This document shows positions 6,360 through 50,568 of a DNA stretch of 64,000 bases, in pieces. Position numbers and translations under genes: made by a program. Origin of the DNA: Torpedo marmorata (lineage: Eukaryota); NCBI GenBank assembly GCA_977017645.1, contig OZ360219.1:253766001-253830000 (forward strand), in the 5' to 3' direction. The notes below the pieces were generated by a model. It was not told the DNA's origin. It made no database searches and was given only the letters and a program-made list of their open reading frames with translations. Position 1 is the stretch's first letter, and each line of letters begins with the position of its first letter.

Positions 6360-6832
6360 TGTGCCAAGAAAGGAACTACTGGCATTGGAGGAAGCCCAAA
6401 AGAGATTCACCAGCCCATCATGAATGGCTATAGATGTTGGATTTGTATTTTTTGGAGTTGAGAAAAATGAAAAGTGATTTTATGGAAACAAATCAGGGGG
6501 CATGACAAGGTAGATGTTGAGAAGTTTCTGCTAGAGGGAGAATCTCAAACTGTTGGATATAGTTAAAAATTAGGGACAGTCATTTAAAACTAAGATACAT
6601 AGTGTTTTTTTTCCACCAGAAGGAGGTGATCTATAATTTTCCACTGTCGAGGCTTGTAGGGTCAAGACTAATGGAGGTATTTAAAGGGGAAGTAGATATA
6701 TTTTTGGAAGATATGCTAATTGATGGCTATGGGGAACTGGCACAGAAGAAAAGATGAGGCCTAGAGCAGATCAGCCATGCTCACATTGGATAGTGGGGCA
6801 GTCTCGATATGCCTGATGGCCTACTCCTGATC
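6360..6832 (+). mobile_element. Old CR1 3' end
   Basis: gatcagccatg...gatggcctactcctg CR1-type 3'UTR preceded by degenerate ORF2 tail. Confidence 0.7.
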
Positions 6833-7067
6833 CTTACAGTTTTTTGCACTCCCCATTGTGAGATCGAGGGGCGTCAGGGAAATCTTTCAATGATGTGACA
6901 ACTTGGACCATCTCTAAAGATAGAACCACCTTCTGGACTCCAATGCAGTTGTAAATTAATAAAGCCATGCATGAGAAGCTGTTTGCATCTACGTCAGCTG
7001 AATGAGCAGTCAGTGCTGGTGCAAACAGATCCAAAAGAGGCCAAGGATACTTTTTCTTAAACTGTGC

Positions 7068-7073
7068 TTTATT
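7068..7073 (-). terminator. Polyadenylation signal AATAAA (distal)
   Basis: Minus strand CTAAATAAAGCACAG at the end of the transposon-free UTR block. Confidence 0.5.
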
Positions 7074-7573
7074 TAGGGCTAAGCTGAAAAGCGTCATCCA
7101 GTACTTACATGAAGATTACAATTGTTTCTAGGTAACTGAGAGTGAAGAGAGCAGTCTTGTTATAACTGTACACCACATTAGATTAGGTATACAGTACTTC
7201 TTTTTTTAGAAAAAATATTACATAAACTAAAATTATAGAAAAAGAAGATGAATAGAATTTGGAAAAGTTATCAAAATGAATGTGTTTAAAAAAATCTACA
7301 AGCAATAAATAAAAATGATAATAAAACAATGCAGCTGCCAATCATAATGCTGGCATTTGTAAATTAATTTAAAATGTAGCTTCTCTCTGAAACAACAATA
7401 AATATCAGAATAAATAATTCATAAATAAATTGTCTTCAGATTTTACAGCATTCAACACAGTGCTTTTTTCAACTGCTCCATTACATCAGTTACCAAAGAT
7501 AAATACCGTGCTTTCATTAAATAGTTTCCTTTTTTCTCAATCAGTACAGTAAAAGTCCTACAAAATATGCAAA

Positions 7574-7579
7574 TTTATT
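7574..7579 (-). terminator. Polyadenylation signal AATAAA (proximal)
   Basis: Minus strand TGTAAATAAATTTGC within the terminal exon. Confidence 0.5.
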
Positions 7580-8626
7580 TACATAAAACAGAGCCAGAAC
7601 CTTTTCAACATTCTCTGTTTTTTTTACCTCCTGTAAACAGCAGAGATTCTCTCTTATTGTTTTGTTACAGATTCAGTGTTAGATAGTTGGGAGTCAGGAC
7701 TTTGCGCTGGCCCTGAAGTTTGCTTGCTTAGTTTTTGAACATGAGAGAGTACTATCATTTTGGGTGGAGGTTGTTAGGAGTTTTGCTTAGAGCAGGTCTT
7801 GGTGATGTCAAGCAGGTTTTCCAGACGAATGTGTATCTACTCCGAGTCCTCACTAACGCTCGGTAGATATTCAAATCCATGGTTTGCTGCAATGTTTACA
7901 ATAGTTTCCGTTTTTGTGTTTTTTTTAATATATTTTTATTTTTTTTTATTGTAGCTGGAATGATTGCAGTCAAAGAGCTGCCAGTGTGGCTTATCTACTG
8001 TCAGTATTTAACAGCATCAGATTGCTATTGGCAGTATATGAACTTATGCTCATCTAAATTCTACAAAATTACAATTCTACAGGATTTCTTTTTTAGCAGT
8101 AACGCTAACCTCTATTTTTTGCATTTTATGTCTAATTTTTTTTAATATTTTTATATTGGTAATTTAAAAGTTTTATTACTCTGTACACCTATTGAGTTTC
8201 TTTTTTAAGGGAAGGTTAAGAACACAATGAACCATTTTCAAGCAATAATTCTATTTCCAAAATAGTCCTCACTCAGTATTTTTTTTGCTTCCCACAGATC
8301 ACAGTTAAGCCAATCTCAAATGTTCAGTCCTCACGAAAGTTACAGAAAACCATATGAAAACTACTTACTTGAATTAATGATACCAAAGTGCTTCCCAAAG
8401 TATCAAAGAACTACAACCTTGCTTAATTAAAAGCAGTTATGTATGTATTATTATTGTTATTATTAGTTTACTTTTTTACAATTCAAGGTAAACGCTTCAG
8501 ACTGTTTTAGGAACAGTGAGAAAAGGAAAGAAATCCATAATTTACATACGACTACAAGTCTGCAATAAAAAGTTTGGTCCTTTGGTCCCTAAAATACCTA
8601 AGGAATGAAAGATACTTATAGTGATT

Positions 8627-8668
8627 GTTGCCATGTGTGACCATGGCAACTGTATCCATGATGACAAC
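8627..8668. promoter_or_regulatory. RFX X-box-like palindromic cluster
   Basis: GTGACC-AT-GGCAAC (8637-8650) fits GTNRCC(N0-3)RGYAAC and is embedded in the inverted repeat GTTGCCATG-n6-CATGGCAAC. Confidence 0.4.
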
Positions 8669-11600
8669 AGGCACTCCTTATCAACTTGTTGCTCTAAAAG
8701 CTCCTAGTATCTTTTTTTTTACATACTTTCTCCTTTCAGGCGTTCAAAACTCATCCTTCAGCAGAAGTGATACATTTTGAAGAGACTTAACAGTCTAAAC
8801 AATCAGAGCAGTCAAAGATAAAAGTCTGAAGAAGTCTTCAGCTTGATTGGCGTATGCTGATATGTCCAAAGGTTTATTTAACAGTACTTTTATTATTTTT
8901 TTTGTACATGCGGTCCTCTCCAGTTTCCGCCCTGAAAGAGGAAGACAAGAAAAAGCATATCAGAGATGGAGTATGAATGCAGATATCTACACTAATAATG
9001 CTTTAAAGTAAATATTATCTAAAGAAACAGCATCCTGCCTTTTCTGCCTTCAATCTGAAGATGACTTCCGCTAAACATTCTTTTTTGTGACTCTTCAGCC
9101 TTTTCAAAATATCAAACGATTTAAATATTTGCCTGTATGTGTTTGTGCGATGAAAAGAAAACACCTGGATTTTGTACAGAAGTGTCACAAGTTATGTAGG
9201 TAATTACTGACTCCCCCACAAACAACTGAATGCTACTTTTGGTTGGCCACACTTATGTGGAAGTCCTGAAGTTGCAGTCAGATGTTTGTGGTTGCATTCC
9301 AAATGTGATCCAAAGAAGACTTCCCATTGAAAACTCTGAACTCATGCAGCAGGAAACCATGTGGGCACTCTTGTGTCAGACACAGGTCACACTTTTCCAA
9401 TGATGTAATAAAGGCAATATCTGTGAGGGACTTAGGTTATTTTAATGCTGTTTGAGTGTACTAAATGTTATAAATTTAAAAAAAATAAATGTTAATAGAC
9501 TTTGAATATATCTGAATATTTTTGAATGCTTGAAACATTGTGTGTTTGACAGTTTTGAGTCAGCTAAGTTCACTGACTAAAGTGTCTCAATTAATTTTTT
9601 TCCAGACTGGGACTTGTTCTACTGCTACCCCCAAGTGATTAAGCTGAGGATGGCCCATCAATGAGCAGCGTTTTGCTGCCAGAGATCATGGCTGCTGATG
9701 ACTGCAAGTTGGAGGCAATTGCACAAGGCACGCCCAAACTTTGTATAGAAATCAGAGGCAAGTGGAGGTAAGACGCATCTCCCCTGAGATCCCACATCTT
9801 GGGCCATTCAACTTTGTCAGGCAATCTAAGTGTTCAAGTAATTATAGCATCAAGAATAGGCTACATATATTAATGTATTAATCCATCCCATTGGGAATTC
9901 AGGACAAACTTCCATACCAAACAACAGTTAAGAGTGTGGAGCTCATTACAAAAGGAATAGGTGAGAAGAAAAGCAAATATAAATTTAAGGGGATAGACAC
10001 ATGCAGGAAAAAGGTTGGGCCAAAGGTTGATATAAAGAATGGCTGTGTCGAGTAGAAACATCTCCATGAACCAACTGGACAAATAGACTGTTGCTGTGGT
10101 GTAATTAGAAGGTAACTAGGTAATATAAAAAAGTTGACCAAATTCAGCAGCAGCATTTGACAGAAGAAATGACACAGAGAGTCTTGCAGCAAGTACTAAA
10201 CTTGTGCAGGATTAAAGGATTATCATAGGCTACAACCATGGGCAGCCAGCTTGATAAAATCCTATGTGTTGTCTGCGCTGCTGTTGTCAGCTGTAATGAA
10301 ATGGCAATTGCAAGGAATAAAATAGTGGAGAATGTTGCTTAATCTATGGGAGTAAGAATTGTCTGCTTAAACTTCATGAGCCTTTCTTTGCAATGGATTG
10401 TCAGAAGGAATTCAAGCCCTGGTAATAGTGCAACCAAGAGTCAGAAGGTTGAAATCTAGTGTTCGGTGGTGCTTGAGAAGGATCTTCCATATTAGACTAA
10501 ATCTGGAGCATGTGATAAGACAGAAAAGCATAAAATGAATTTAAGAAAATTTATTGAGGCTAGTTTGTAGGTGTGTGTAGATTGATGCCAAGAGAAGAGC
10601 TCACTATCTGTCCTTTCATCAGGAATCAGCCTCAAAAGAGACCTAAAGCTAATGATATATTTAAAAAATAAAAAGCAAAAATAATTGCAGATGCTGGCAA
10701 TTTGAATTCCAAACCAAAAATGCTCAATGAGTCAGGCAGTATTTGTGGACAGAGACAAAGAGTTCATATTTCAAGTCAATGACCCTTATCAAATGAAGAC
10801 AAAATTATAACTCTGTCATTCTCTCCAAAGATGCTGCCTGACCAGTTGAGTATTTTTTAGCAGTTTCTGTTTTTCTTTTACATTTAAAAGTAGCGGCAAG
10901 ACGTAAGAGTGGAGATCAGAAAACATTTTGAGAAGGCTGTAGTATTTGAAAATATATGCTTAAAGAGTTGATTACGGGCACTTTTAGTATTCACCCTTGG
11001 TTGGTCATAGGGATACTGTCTCTTTAAGAAACTCAATTGTATCTTTTAAAAAATGCAATTTTATATTAAATGTTAGAGGTAATATTAATCCAAAGAAAAA
11101 TCTCACATCAGTTCTGTCTACAGCTAGCAGGCAGATTCCGCTTACAGTTTTAATACCATAGATACTAGAACTGCAATGATCCACTTTAGTGGAAGTGACA
11201 TGCAGAATATCAATCCATGCTGGCAGGTTCCCACACTGTTGGTTAAACAAAGAGCAAACCGTACACAGCAATCGAACAATTACAACAGCAAAAATAAAAA
11301 CAATTTCAAAGGACCCTTTTTCAGTTGCACGGAGGAAGCACTATTGTTCTGACTGTTTTACATACTACTGAAAATGAATCTGAAATTGCTGGAATTACTC
11401 AGCCTGATTGGCCATTTTATCTCATTTGTGAAAGTTTGGGTTATGACTGCTAGTGTCCAACTATATATTTTTTTGTCTGAGACACTTCAAATGAAAAAGG
11501 CCCCCTACTCCAAAAAAATAAACAAATCACAATATTTTCAGTGCAAAGAAATCAACCACAAATTTTATTATACAGTTATACCTCGTTTGTATTTTTCTTA

Positions 11601-11936
11601 AAATAAAGGGACTGGGAATCAATGTTTTATGTGACATCTAAATAAGCGAAGAAAGCTGACAGGACTGAAAGAAAATAAAAGAAACCAAAGTAATAATTAT
11701 TATCAAAATAACCACCGCAAACACTAAACTAAAAATGAGCACAGCAAGAATAGTGGCAGCACACAGTTAAAAGGCACATGTGATCATGACTGGCCAATCA
11801 TTAACTGATACAACATCCAAGAAAAATGCTTTCACAGCACCTTCACGAAACTTGACGGCATGTCATGCAACCAATTGTTGAGCTCGTTACATGACGCCAT
11901 CAGATCACACTTTAACTTCTTGTTGACAGAACTTAC

Positions 11937-12010
11937 GCACTGGACCGTTTTCTCCATTTCATTGTTAAGGATACTTTTCTACAGCCTGAGACTGCGGGTT
12001 ATGACTGTCT
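11937..12010 (-). other. CELF4: Candidate non-coding cassette exon within the CELF4 3'UTR intron
   Basis: Pyrimidine tract ttcttttcttcttttgtc, tandem acceptor AAGCAG|AGACAG, consensus donor TGC|gtaagt (11936-11931). Lies in a transposon-free block. Confidence 0.55.
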
Positions 12011-14134
12011 CTGCTTGGTTTGGTTTTTGTTCGAATGACAAAAGAAGAAAAGAATTTTTGTTTTTTGGAGGGGGAACAGTACCAAACACAGCATCAGTCA
12101 AAAGCAATATTTGCAATTGAAAATTAAGAAACCAAACTCAAGGAAATGGATGAAGCCTTGCAACGGCATATAAAATTACAAACACATGATTAACAGTAAC
12201 GTAATGAATTATGCAGTGGATGCTAAAGAAACCATGATTAAATGCATGATAGCAGACAGACATTGGTTACAGTGTAACTATATTTCAATTCTTCACCCAT
12301 TTATTACAGACGTGCATCCCAAATTCAGACTAATACGCTGTTCATCAAATGAGAAAGAAAATAATTGTTCATATAGTTGGAAGCACACCAGAAAATCAAA
12401 TCAAATTAGTGTTACACAGGGAAAGGGAACTTAAAGCCAAAATATCATCACTCCTGAACCAACTCCTTTATAATGAAAGAAGTGGCAATGCCCAGGAATT
12501 CTTAAGTTCTGAGTTGGCTCCAGGAAGGATAAGAGTTGGAGGTGTCCTTTGAACTCCATGGGTTTTGTCTTAAAAGCCCAAATAATTGAAAAAATAAAGA
12601 AATTCTATCATGACCTGACAGCATTTGGAAAACATCGTCATTTACTGTATATCTGCTTAGCAGAACTTTACAAATGTATGAATTACTTGCTTTAAATAAA
12701 CCTTTTAACCATAGGTGCCAATGTTTTTGAGTTCTTTTAGCATTATAATTACTTTTCTCAGATGCACAGATAAAGGAGCTTCCACTTTAACATAAAAACA
12801 GAATTCCGCAAGAATTTAGCTGCTGCACCTGCTGAGTTCTTCCAGCATTATGTTTTGGTTCTAGATTCTGGCATTAGCAGTCTCTTTTTTATTCCATTGG
12901 AGCATGCTTACTTTTTGAAAATACTTTCCCAATGCAGTATCAATACATTGTTATTAAAAAGAAATTGAATAATCTTTTGTAATGGCTCTTCTGCACTGCA
13001 ATGTGTGAAACCAAGATGTGCAGCATTAGTAGGTCCTAGCCAGGCTAGAAGTAGTGATACCAAAATCAGTGACCAGGAAGAAGAAAAAACTATCATGTTA
13101 CTCCAGCCGGAATACTGCTCTGCTAATAATAACCCAAACTGCTCGGAGAAGGGAAAAAAGACTGAGAAATACATTGCTGCCTGTATTCATTAAAAAATGT
13201 CTCAAGTTACTTCATAACTCCACCAGGTAATCAAGCAAATCTCAGGAGGCCACGGTTACTTATTAACATTACTGAAAGAATGTAACCAACAGCCCAACAT
13301 CCTTCTTCCTCAGAAAATCTCAAATCTCTTTGAAATATTTTTTAGCACGTGTCGCTTACCAATTACCAAATATTATAAGGTGCGACAGGCTTCTGCGAAA
13401 TCAATACATTCTGTTTCCTCATTTAATTATTTAGATTCTCATTTTAGTCCCATCTTACTGAATTCTACAAAGAACATCGATAAAGAGTAGCTTAGGTTCT
13501 TGCAGTGATTGCTCCCAGGACCATTGACCAACTTGATGCTGTTCCTCACTGTGCAATGAAGGCCAAAATGAAAAAGGAGAATCTACACACCATGTTTGAA
13601 TAATTTAGAAGCAGCATTTTATACTTGCCAGTTGAAACATTTAAAGTTCTGTTCAGAATGTTATTTTCAAGGAAGAGGATAGATAGAAACAGCCATGATT
13701 ATCCCTTGCAGGAAAAACCAGTGTGCTCCTAACTCATCGGCAGACACAATTTGGATGGCCAAAGGTCCTCATTGACATGTTTATCTAGATATACTTTGAA
13801 GTATTATTAAGTAACTTGTCTCATATTGTCAGTACTAAACAATGCAGCCTATTCACAAAATTCAATCCTTTGACTAAACAAACCAAATTTTCAGAATGTT
13901 GAGCAAAAAGAATAGTGTTTGGCAACACAGACCAGGGTAAAGTTAGAGGCTTCTTCCCTAACACTGGGCCTTTCACAGTCTTTTTAACACTTATGTGGGG
14001 CTGAAGTGAGCTATTCAGTCCTTGGGGCACATTGCAAAGTTTACTCATTCCTATTTACTTAATTATGTTCTAATATCCAAGGATTATCAACAGGGATCTA
14101 CTGTTGTCTATGCTGAAACTTCAAGTAATTTTGA

Positions 14135-14278
14135 TCCTGCATATGTATTGTTTGTCTGTATGTGTGTTATGACTGGTTGTGTGTCTGTGTGTTTTGCACC
14201 GAGGACCGGAGAACGCTGTTTCATCGGGTTGTACTTGTGCAATCAGGTGATAATAAACTTGACTTGACTTGGCTTGAC
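14135..14278 (+). mobile_element. Rex1/Babar 3' terminal fragment
   Basis: Reverse complement of 2257-2395, ending AATAAA(CTTGA)n. Confidence 0.85.
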
Positions 14279-15397: not shown

Positions 15398-18300
15398 CCA
15401 TAGAACCATAGAACAATTACAACACAGAAACAGGCCCCTTCGGCCCTTCTAGTCTGTGTCAAACCATTTTTTTTGGCCTAGTCCCAATGACCTGCACCCA
15501 ATGCATAGTCTTCCATAACTCTCCCATCCATGTACCTGTCCAAATTCTTCTTAAATGTTAACATTGAGCTCACATTCACCACCTCAGCTGGCAGCTCGTT
15601 CCACACTCCCACCACTCTCTGTATGAAGAAGTTCCCCCTCACGTTCCCCTAAACTTTTCTCCTTTCACTCTTAACCCATGTCCTCTGGTTTGTATCTCAC
15701 CTACCCTCAGTGGAAAAAGCCTATCTACATTTACTCTGTCTATCCCCCTCATAATTTTAAATACCTCTATCAAATCTCCCCTCATTCTTCTATGCTCCAG
15801 GGAATAACCTTTCCCTGTAACTCAGTTCCTGAAATCCGGGCAACATCCTAGTAAATCTTCTCTGCTCTCTTTCTATCTTATTGATATCTTTGCTGTAGTT
15901 AGGTGACCAAAACTGCACACAATACTCCAAATTTGGCCTCACCAATGTCTTATACAACTTTACCATAACATTCCAGCTCCTATACTCAATAGATTGATTT
16001 ATGAAGGACAAAATGCCAAAAGCCTGGCTGTTACCGTCCCAGCTTGCTAGGCCGTGGCAGATAAAACCCGAGTGTAAAGGGTGGGGCTAGTACTGCACAC
16101 ACTGCGCTCCACCTAAAAAATCCATTGTGCAGGCTCGAAGGACATGCCCATGTCTACGATCTTTCCTGGATCTTTGTTCGCGAAGCCAAGCCATAAGGAT
16201 GCCAAAAGCTCTCTTTACAACCCTATCCACCTGTGACGCCACTTTCAGAAAATTAAGTATCTGTATTTCCAGATCTCTCTGTTCTACCACACTCCTGTGC
16301 CCTACCATTTACCGTGTATGTCCTTTCTTGGTTTGTCCTTCCAAAATGCAACACCTCACACTTGTCTGCATTAAATTCCATCTGCCATTTTTAAGCCAAT
16401 TTTTCCAACCGGTCCAGATCCCTCTGCAAGCTTTGAAAACCTTCTTTGCTGTCCACAACGCCTCCAATCTTCGTGTCATCTGCAAACTTGCTGATCCAAT
16501 TTACCACATTATCATCCAGATCATTGATATAGATTAGAAACAATAATGATCCCAGCACCGATCCCTGAGGCACACCACTACTCACAGGCCTCCAGTCTGA
16601 GAAGCAATCATCCACCACTACTCTCTGGCTTCTCCCGTCCAGCCATTGTCGAATCCAGTTCACCATGAATACCTAGCGTCTGAACCTTCCTGACTAATCT
16701 CCCATGTGGGACCTTGTGAAAGGCTTTAATAAAGTCCATGTAGACAACATCCACAGCCTTTCCTTTATCAACTTTCCTGGTAGCCTCCTCGAAAAACTCA
16801 ATAAGATTGGTTAAACACGACCTACCACGCACAAAGCCATGTTGACTATCCCTAATCAGTTTCTGGCTATCCAAATAATTGTATATCCGATCTCTTAGAA
16901 CAGCTTCCAATAATTTATCTACTACTGACGTCAGGCTCACCAGTCTATAATTTCCAGGGTTACTTTTGGAGCCATTTTTAAACAACAGAACAACGTGAGC
17001 TACCCTCCAATCCTCCGGCACCACACCTGTGGCTAAGGACATTTTAAATATTTCTGCCAGAGCCCCTGCAATTTCTATACTAGTCTCCCTCAAGGCCCGA
17101 GGGAATATCTTGTCAGGCCCTGGGGATTTATCCACCCTTATTTGCTTTAAGACAGCAAGCACTTCCTCCTCTTTAATCTGTATAGGTTCCATGACCTCAC
17201 TGCTTGTTTTTCTTACTTCCCACGACTCTGTGCCTGTTTCCTGAGTGAATACTGATGAAAAAAACCCATTTAAAATCTTCCCCATCTCTTTTGGCTCCAT
17301 ACAAAGCCGACCACTCTGATCTTCAAGGGGACCAATTTTGTCCCTTACTATCCTTTTGCTCTTAATATACCTGTAGAAACCCTTAGGATTTCCCTTCACA
17401 TTGTCTTCCATAGCAACCTCACGTCTTCTTTTGGCCTTCCTGATTTCTTTCTTGAGGTTTCTCTTGCATTTTTTATACTCCTCAAGTACCTCATTTGCTC
17501 CATGTTGTCTATCTGCTATACACCTCTCTCTTCTTCCGAACCAGATGTCCAATATTCCTCGAAAACCAAGGTTCCCTATACCTGGGAACCTTGCCTTTAA
17601 TCCTGACAGGAACGTACAAACTCTGTACCCTCAAAATTTCACCTTTGAAGGTCTTCCACTTACGTCGCACATCCTTGCCCAAAAACAACTTATCCCAATC
17701 CACGTATTCTATATCCTTTCTCATTTCCTCAAAATTAGCCTTTCTCCAATTTAGAATTTCAACCCGAGGCCCAGTCCTATCTTTCTCCATAATTAACTTG
17801 AAACTAATGGCCTTATGATCACTGGACCCAAAATGTTCCACTACACATACTTCTGTCACCTGTTCTGTCTCGTTCCCTAAAAGGAATTCCAGTATTGCCT
17901 TCTCTCTAGTAGGTGCCTCTCTATATTGATTTAGAAAGCATTCCTGAACACATTTGACAAACTCCAAACCATCCAGCCCTTTTACAATATGGAAGTCCCA
18001 GTCAATAAGTGGAAAATTAAAATACCCTACTATCACAACCTTATGTTTCCTGCAGCTGTCTGCTATCTCTCTACAGATTTTCTCCTCCAATTCTTGTTGA
18101 CTATTGGGCGATCTAATAATACAACCCCATGAGTGTGGTCATTCCTTTCCCGTTCCTCAGCTCCACCCATATAGCCTCAGTAGACGAGCCCTCTAGTCTG
18201 CCATGCCTGAGCACAGCTGCGATATTTTCCCTGAAGAGCAAAGCCACTCCTCCCCCTTTCTTCACCACCCCCTCCCCCCCCCCACCATTCTTTCATGTCT

Positions 18301-36939: not shown

Positions 36940-38411
36940 TCCACTGGATTTATTTATTTTTGCAAAACATTCAGCAACTGTTCATTGGCCATTAATCAAA
37001 TGAAAGAATGACATTCTGAAATAGTGATGTCTTGAAAAACAAGTCATGACTGAAGGTTTCCACTTTATTAATCTCTTCATTCACAATATTATACTCATTA
37101 TGCACGTTCAGACAATCCATTCAACCATGCTTCGAGATCCTTAAATGCATTTATATCGGTATTTTCCCTATTTAGTTCCACTGTGCTCTCACAGACAAAT
37201 CTTCTACTTAATGATCGACGATGATAAACTAAATATATTATCATATTCAAAATCATCAAAGGGTAAGCATTTATGAAAGCAGTTATATTTGAGCACTTCA
37301 CAGAATTTCTTACTCCAGTCAGTTAGCAAGATTGCATATTACATATTAAAATCCTTTCTGAATTATATGAGGTTCTATGAAGAATATTCAGACTCATGGT
37401 CAATTCAACATGGTGGAGTCTGCTAACATGAACTGAGTACAGAAAGTGATCCAATCTGTTGGCAGGCTGAAGGTCCATTAATATTGGGCCTAATTTGAAT
37501 TTCAGGATCTTGCTGCTATCTCAGGCAAGTCTAGTGGGTTGATAATTACCTTTGCAACTGGTGACACCTTTATCAGATCCACATGCAGATAAGTTAGCCA
37601 TTTGATGGGAGCCATCAAAGTTAAATCTCATGCAGACTTTATACCCTCAATTTTGGGAAGATATCCTGAAAGAGATATCAGGTTCTCTGTTTGCATATGA
37701 AGTTACTAATGCCTGCTTTGGGTGCAGGCATTATGTCCCCATGTGAACACTCTACCAATCTGACAATGATGGGTATTCATATGGAATACATACACAGACT
37801 GAATGCCATAGCAAATAAGTAGGTACCAAAATTATACCTGAAAAACAAAGTAGAATCAACTAATTTTTGGTCCTATAATTTGTTTAGAAATATATGCTGT
37901 TCCATTCAATAGTTCACCTTAGTTACACAATGCCACAGTCCAACTTTAGTAATAATTATCATAACCTGAGCAAATGTTCCCCATTTATTTTTTTAAACCA
38001 CATTAATTATATCAACCACAATTTGTGCAGACTTCTTTTTCCCAGAAGCAATCAAAAGCAACATTCTTGAATGCTTTTGGGAATAAGATGTATGCACAAA
38101 CCTTACAGTTTTAAAAGTCAGTTGATTAATGCCACTGGTAATGCCATACAATTGATATATATTTGAGAATTTTTTAAGATCATGGGAATATTAGGTTAAC
38201 CCCATTGTTCTGTGAAATTCATACATTATCGCAATTCATACAATTGATAGCCATGAATGTATTGATTACACAGGAATAATAGGCACCACAGGTTAAAATG
38301 GTGATAGGAATTGCTAAAGTAGATATCATAATGTACTGTATATAGGATTATATAAGAATATCACAAATTCTGAAGATTACCTGTAATAGCTCTCGGTTGA
38401 GTTGTAGCGGT

Positions 38412-38539
38412 TCAGTAAGGGCGGTTGGCATCTTTCGGCCTCTTGAGCTGTACTTTCAGCCTCTTCATGCCAATTTGAAAACCATTCATTGCCTGGATGG
38501 CAGCCTGGGCACTGGCAGGATTGTCAAAACTCACAAAAC
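38412..38539 (-). CDS. CELF4: CELF4 last coding exon, RRM3 C-terminal part and stop
   Basis: ttttggcag|GT TTT GTG AGT...CGC CCT TAC TGA. Translates (G)[41 protein letters not shown]. Exon continues 31 nt as UTR to donor CAG|gtaatc at 38381/38380. Not present in the supplied ORF track. Confidence 0.97.
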
Positions 38540-50424: not shown

Positions 50425-50568
50425 CAAAGCATTTACTTTGGTTTGTTGCTCGGTCCACAAACACTTTTGAGGAGATGACATTACCAAAAGGCAGGAACAT
50501 TTGCATGAGCTCAGCATCTCCAAACTCCTGAGGAAGGTGATAGATAAAAAGGTTGCACCCCTCTGGAC
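50425..50568 (-). CDS. CELF4: CELF4 coding exon, RRM3 N-terminal part
   Basis: ttctctgcag|GT CCA GAG GGG TGC...AAA TGC TTT G|gtgggt. Translates [48 protein letters not shown](G), containing RNP2 LFIYHL. 144 nt, phase 1/1, in frame with both neighbouring exons. Confidence 0.97.

Follow-up and report, generated by a model that had tools for sequence, protein, structure and literature searches.

The last intron of CELF4 in Torpedo marmorata contains a candidate non-coding cassette exon that lies beyond the normal stop codon and probably serves to set the amount of CELF4 mRNA. The window analyzed here is a stretch of 64,000 nucleotides (GenBank assembly GCA_977017645.1, contig OZ360219.1, positions 253,766,001 to 253,830,000), and all coordinates without a locus label are positions in it. 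We give chances of roughly two in three to the reading that this is an old non-coding cassette whose main role is dosage control, inclusion lowering CELF4 mRNA by nonsense-mediated decay (NMD) and leaving the protein unaltered. We have little doubt that the exon is real, because it has a counterpart in the paralog CELF6 and because tables for human and mouse record 85-nt cassettes within this intron; very likely it is an old exon, already catalogued in mammals, that works like the 3' untranslated region (3'UTR) cassettes of hnRNP D and hnRNP DL. In T. marmorata the cassette would be spliced, although likely skipped in most transcripts, and the included form of the mRNA would be degraded. Of 24 sequencing runs from 11 studies none is registered as RNA; the contigs of four of them gave no match to 11910-12110, which counts neither for nor against splicing, because contig sets lose minor isoforms and are in part filtered. 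The class of mechanism is known and the mammalian exon stands in published supplements; new here are the connection with the rows of the human and mouse tables, the findings that speak against a simple account by NMD or RBFOX, and a predicted hairpin downstream of the exon.

What would inclusion of such an exon change? The minus strand of the window carries three coding exons (Table 1), all of which match named CELF4 of sharks and rays at 100% identity and resemble named CELF6 less, so by sequence the gene is CELF4, as the original prediction had it. PKDANRPY is the C-terminal end in 104 of 120 homologs. In this gene the stop codon ends at 38412, the donor follows 31 nt further on (38381/38380), and a last intron of 29.4 kb extends up to the terminal exon, which begins at 8931. 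The candidate exon thus comes after the normal stop, in an intron that begins less than 50 nt from it. A tandem acceptor, AAG/CAG, opens the exon at 12013 or 12010, and its last nucleotide, 11937, is followed by a GTAAGT donor at 11936. In the exon junction complex (EJC) model of NMD, the terminating ribosome clears a junction complex deposited close after the stop, leaving the mRNA stable. Default splicing would remove the last intron whole, giving a junction 31 nt past the stop and a stable mRNA; inclusion would place a junction 105 or 108 nt past it, beyond the 50-55-nt limit, and NMD would follow with no alteration of the protein. The pyrimidine tract, A/C-rich spacer, NAGNAG acceptor, exon of 74 or 77 nt and donor described in the original prediction were all found in place, its TGCATG words lie at 11869-11864 and 11204-11199, seven YCAY starts were counted in 12140-12250 where about seven had been claimed, and its change of junction distance from 31 to 105 nt held on recount. 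A coding role for the exon was considered and rejected, as lengths of 74/77 versus 97/101 nt in CELF4 and CELF6 keep no frame between the paralogs.

Single splice or RBFOX motifs are weak evidence alone, because the same 29.4-kb intron holds 11 GTRAGT and 18 TGCATG words, and it is the CELF6 counterpart that, on sequence comparison, raises the candidate exon above chance. A search with the last coding exon found five CELF genes in the same genome (31 candidates scored). In all five a donor-like site follows the stop closely, at 31, 21, 38, about 44 and 40 nt (that is, 21-44 nt and always less than 50 nt), and therefore any added exon crosses the 50-55-nt limit. Sequence past the four other CELF stops was compared over 60, 80, 30 and 30 kb. 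Window positions 11795-11955 match the last intron of the C76 gene, which is CELF6, on the same strand with 62% identity over 167 nt (E 1.3e-5), and the local score of 75 stands far above a background with mean 22.5, standard deviation (SD) 3.6 and maximum 36 in 419 windows. The alignment runs in register through the tract, the A/C spacer, the tandem AG, GTAAGT, TTGCATGAC, a 17-nt word and GTTGCATGAC, and the UGCAUG downstream of the donor is kept as well, at +68 in CELF4 and +67 in CELF6. The exon body is poorly kept and the splice signals are better kept, which is the pattern expected for a non-coding exon. Inclusion of the CELF6 candidate exon would move the last junction from 21 nt to 118 or 122 nt past the stop. 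The exon lies 3,387 nt from the putative terminal acceptor in CELF6, placed by a tract and AG upstream of a 3'UTR block common with CELF4, and 3,005 nt from it in CELF4. No counterpart of the exon was found in the first 30 kb past the stops of two CELF1/2-like genes (C57 and C50), whose introns may extend further.

The papers cited here were available in part, and what is said of them refers to those parts. The human CELF4 exon is listed in Table S4a of PMC13078869 as a skipped exon at chr18:37247185-37247270 (hg38), flanked by the last coding exon, of 172 nt, and by the last exon. Its row reads NMD_in, UCSC cassette 1, Cons.mouse.NMD 1 and NMD score 0.36, with a probability of being intolerant to loss of function (pLI) of 0.998, and it belongs to the 6,861 exons that are dynamic in brain development; its NMD status in that paper is a prediction (PMC13078869). 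If the human exon starts as the one here does, the human junction would lie 44 nt past the stop on skipping and about 129 nt past it on inclusion. In mouse, Dataset S9 of PMC5989265 records an 85-nt Celf4 cassette, CA-108013-270190-275129-275214-277272, 2,058 nt before the terminal exon, with the tag [1/33] and network values of -1 for Mbnl, -1 for Nova, 0 for Rbfox and 0 for Ptbp. Read without the legend, we take -1 to mean repression and the tag to give the transcripts with and without the exon. The tag [DNT] is taken here to denote a terminal downstream exon. Judged by position and size, the candidate exon is most probably the ortholog of this mammalian cassette. CELF is not named in the available main text of PMC13078869, and with the search terms used no passage about an exon of this kind was found in the available part of a CELF review (PMC13326565). 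Literature searches found no title or abstract on the candidate exon or hairpin, most matches being judged by title or abstract. One definition of poison exons leaves out exons of the UTR (bioRxiv 10.1101/2025.06.26.661736, in its available part).

Downstream of the donor, the best-kept words of the CELF4/CELF6 alignment are mutually complementary, and in both genes they are predicted to form a hairpin whose 3' arm contains UGCAUG. In CELF4 the stem spanning 11902-11853 has 17 pairs and one bulge; a 76-nt piece folds at -25.9 kcal/mol (z -3.16), none of 200 shuffles does as well, and an equally good fold is reached by 2.3% of 773 intron windows. The 10-bp core is the sole stem of at least 10 bp in 8932-14100. 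The same stem is predicted in an 81-nt piece of CELF6, where it is not significant (z -1.09), and another fold wins in a 146-nt piece. In the consensus stem 14 of 14 pairs are kept, two having changed on one side and none on both; both differences retain pairing through G-U, and the loop diverges. For the CELF4 UGCAUG the predicted unpaired probability is 0.00, which ranks lowest among the 18 of the intron; for the CELF6 motif it is 0.23, the second lowest of 11. The stem arm pattern occurs in the 6.2-Gb genome only at the CELF4 and CELF6 loci, from which the pattern was built, and the reversed control had one match. A scan of metagenome contigs with the pattern returned 115 loci, none homologous by a two-sequence profile, the best E of 7.6e-5 reflecting the searched words only. 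Two sequences are insufficient as proof of an RNA structure, and paired DNA-binding sites would look alike. We suggest tentatively, and with more doubt than confidence, that CELF4 and CELF6 have shared a structural switch since the early vertebrate genome duplications, in which a hairpin past a 3'UTR poison exon would hide an RBFOX site, and the level of RBFOX or of stem-opening proteins would set the threshold for inclusion and hence for destruction of the mRNA of a dosage-sensitive gene of epilepsy and autism.

Which proteins might act on the exon? Activation by RBFOX had been proposed from the downstream UGCAUG. The motif is present and conserved at +68/+67, but because it is predicted to be paired in both paralogs, and fully so in CELF4, such activation is questionable, and the mouse network gives Rbfox 0. 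This last value is weak, because the Rbfox network was built on knockdowns in C2C12 and HeLa cells (PMC5989265), in which a neuronal gene was probably unmeasured. UGCAUG would then promote inclusion only on opening of the stem. Repression by NOVA, proposed from the upstream YCAY cluster, agrees with the mouse value of Nova -1 in the sense that we give its sign, but the cluster itself is not kept in CELF6. Of the 110-nt windows of the intron, 0.65% contain seven or more YCAY, but the window at issue was chosen post hoc; in a fixed 300 nt upstream of the exon there are eight, a number matched in 15.6% of intron windows. From the mouse network, it is likely that NOVA and MBNL repress the exon in neurons, and such repression would maintain high CELF4 in the cells that need it. 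CELF proteins may also exert feedback, because the 300 nt upstream of the exon are rich in UGU in both genes (12 in CELF4, in the top 5% of intron windows; 15 in CELF6, in the top 1.5%). CELF4 prefers (A/U)UGU but showed little role in splicing in vivo (PMC3510034).

Several results weigh against dosage control by decay. Cycloheximide treatment of iNeurons left inclusion of the human exon unaltered (change in percent spliced in, PSI, -0.002; P 0.80; false discovery rate 1; the baseline PSI is not visible; PMC13078869), and the three Celf4 rows in the available mouse table S2a of the same paper are all coding, none of them the candidate exon. Celf4 does not occur in the 12 files examined of the 13 in the PMC11188260 supplement or in the available unproductive-splicing tables of PMC10123112, and no 3'UTR cassette is present among the human or mouse CELF6 rows examined. 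In T. marmorata, no counterpart of the exon was found in the 80 kb past the stop of the C54 gene, by elimination likely CELF5, whose last intron is about 2.6 kb and repeat-filled; the absence of the YCAY cluster in CELF6 also counts on this side. The EJC rule is itself soft on both sides, distal 3'UTR introns varying in NMD sensitivity and some proximal ones being sensitive, and proximal introns are most affected at a distance of at least 36 nt, a value that the 31 nt of CELF4 falls below (PMC7310861). Much of this would suit an exon that is real and old without decay being its main output, acting instead as a decoy by which splicing of the last intron is slowed or the intron detained, or giving a minor 3'UTR variant that escapes NMD. 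The missing cycloheximide response, the very low mouse inclusion (by the tag as we read it), the absence from the available parts of two NMD-focused supplements (PMC11188260 and PMC10123112) and the stability of many transcripts with 3'UTR introns (PMC13223760, PMC7310861) all point that way. We nevertheless consider it rather unlikely: the stop-proximal intron is kept in five of five paralogs, in CELF4 and CELF6 here, and in human and mouse, the length of the exon suffices to pass the limit, inclusion of the human exon changes during development, and low steady-state inclusion is also a product of decay.

The conserved block could also be viewed mainly as a DNA enhancer kept after genome duplication, its inverted repeat representing two transcription-factor sites and the exon being incidental. 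Its best-kept words resemble what we take to be cAMP response element (CRE)-like, E-box/M-box-like and RFX-like motifs, no stem pair has changed on both sides, the CELF6 fold lacks significance, and the same word pair turns up in the 115 unrelated metagenome stretches. An enhancer would hardly account for an acceptor, tract and GTAAGT kept in register on the sense strand of both paralogs, for stem differences that both still pair by G-U, or for mammalian tables in which an exon is spliced in the same intron, and this explanation appears very improbable. Less probable still is an alternative last exon, opened by the same acceptor and closed by a poly(A) site in the intron near 11569, with a short 3'UTR free of NMD. 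An AATAAA at 11569, about 370 nt past the donor, would allow it, and such escape from NMD has been described in general (PMC13187750), but GTAAGT is kept in CELF6, no such hexamer occurs in the 1 kb after the CELF6 exon, and the mammalian events are internal cassettes. That the exon is a pseudo-exon, a chance assembly of splice-like motifs in an AT-rich intron, is hardly credible: GTRAGT and TGCATG are indeed frequent there, but the paralog match occurs at the same gene position about 14 SD over the background mean, and the genome holds the stem pattern at only these two loci, with the qualifications given above for that search. A cassette whose inclusion would lower CELF4 mRNA by NMD is the reading that we prefer.

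Table 1. Features of the CELF4 3' region and its CELF6 counterpart (window coordinates unless a locus label is given; a slash marks the exon-intron junction)
Feature	Position	Strand	Remarks
Candidate non-coding cassette exon	11937..12013	-	74 nt from second AG (12010), 77 nt from first (12013); donor TGC/GTAAGT
CELF6 candidate exon	C76:24,742,743-24,742,647		97 nt, 101 from first AG; by alignment to CELF4
Predicted RNA hairpin	11853..11902	-	10-bp core pairs 11895-11886 with 11871-11862; outer stem reaches 11902/11853; 3' arm holds UGCAUG (11869-11864)
TGCATG downstream of candidate exon	11869-11864	-	+68 from donor
AG-free zone, 123 nt	12016..12136	-	branch-point-like words ~12101-12093, pyrimidine tract 12054-12040, A/C-rich spacer; CELF6 aligns at the tract, the spacer and the tandem AG
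Seven YCAY motifs, possible NOVA silencer	12146..12249	-	inside UGU-rich stretch; not kept in CELF6
Second TGCATG	11199..11204	-	733 nt past donor; no counterpart near CELF6 exon; may be chance
CELF4 coding exon, paralog-diagnostic, 28 residues	57099..57182	-	28/28 vs named CELF4, 23/28 vs named CELF6
CELF4 coding exon, first half of RRM3	50425..50568	-	100% to named CELF4; best PDB matches CELF1/CELF2 RRM3
CELF4 last coding exon	38381..38539	-	stop TGA 38414-38412, 31 nt 3'UTR, then donor CAG/GTAATC
CELF4 terminal 3'UTR exon	7073..8931	-	start 8931; poly(A)-type hexamers 8894 to 7073, 3' end not fixed

The surroundings of the exon have features of their own. AG-to-AG gaps as long as its AG-free zone number 6 of about 2,086 in the CELF4 last intron. 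The best branch-point-like words stand about 85-90 nt before the CELF4 acceptor and CELF6 has CTAAC at -23, so that on sequence the position of the branch point may differ between the two exons. A second tract-plus-AG at about 12338, 325 nt upstream of the candidate exon, could yield a 400-nt form and has no evident CELF6 counterpart in the alignment. The exon had been described as lying in a special transposon-free block of about 1.3 kb; the repeat-poor region is wider, about 5 kb, and less specific. A repeat library built from 264 kb of local sequence covers 27% of the last intron and leaves 8608-14135 uncovered, and a genome search with 8900-14100 found short old repeats only, at about 10670-10890 and 12825-12895 (40 of 323 candidates scored). 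At 15400-16000 lies a high-copy repeat with many copies elsewhere in the genome at 88-93% identity (15,150 candidates). An Rfam search of 6500-14000 at E up to 1 gave one weak, sub-cut-off U6atac match outside the feature, and a tandem-repeat check gave nothing relevant. A pair of TGCATG words at 37634 and 37587, 47 nt apart, lies in a repeat-free stretch about 750-800 nt past the donor of the last coding exon. Two AATAAA words, at 8894 and 8878, lie less than 60 nt from the start of the terminal exon and might give an isoform with a very short 3'UTR. CELF4 (8541-8608), CELF6 (L011:6780-6844) and the likely CELF5 (C54, about 3.15 kb past the stop) have in common a block of the 3'UTR in which the word GGACCAAA is doubled; the CELF4 block is 81% identical over 68 nt to that of CELF6, and by this sequence comparison it is an old paralog-wide element. 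Three genes of the CELF3-6 type were found (CELF4, CELF6 and the likely CELF5), with no CELF3 match among the 31 candidates scored, whether through loss or an assembly gap.

How does the candidate exon compare with known systems? The human and mouse CELF4 cassettes occupy the same intron, are of similar size (85 versus 74/77 nt) and have the same predicted NMD outcome; they lie about 2.0 kb before the terminal exon, versus 3.0 kb here, and they are known from table rows, with neither a CELF6 counterpart nor a hairpin mentioned in the available parts of the sources. The arrangement is reminiscent of hnRNP D and hnRNP DL, in which inclusion of a 3'UTR cassette yields an NMD target (PMC5824352). 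Both cases concern paralogous genes for RNA-binding proteins, each with a non-coding 3'UTR cassette exon; however, decay and auto- and cross-regulation were shown by experiment for hnRNP D/DL, whereas for CELF4 decay is predicted and the suggested regulators are NOVA and MBNL, not the host protein. The NOVA-regulated cryptic NMD exons (PMC3552424) likewise allow neurons to control the level of an mRNA by way of an exon whose use NOVA represses or promotes. Unlike these, the CELF4 exon sits past the normal stop and adds no premature one, and the available part of that paper names neither Celf nor Brunol. Conserved intronic pairing beside an NMD exon has parallels in BRD2/BRD3 (PMC10789245) and in concealed branch sites (PMC11162794). 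Compared with those structure-gated poison exons, the CELF4 stem is short, local, downstream and shared by paralog descent, and it would hide an RBFOX motif rather than a branch site.

Human CELF4 is strongly dosage-sensitive (pLI 0.998, SFARI score 1; PMC13078869), and mice without CELF4 develop epilepsy (PMC3510034). If the preferred reading is true, the exon is a natural dial on CELF4 mRNA that keeps the protein intact and a possible splice-switching target; if the structural switch is also true, CELF4 would rise when the exon is blocked or the stem clamped, within the limit that low exon inclusion may leave little mRNA to recover. The predicted hairpin offers a sharp and inexpensive way to ask whether an RBFOX site can be gated by RNA structure. 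Given the CELF6 counterpart, the dial would be older than the split of CELF4 and CELF6, which speaks for selection on an exon that in the mammalian tables is a row with no comment.

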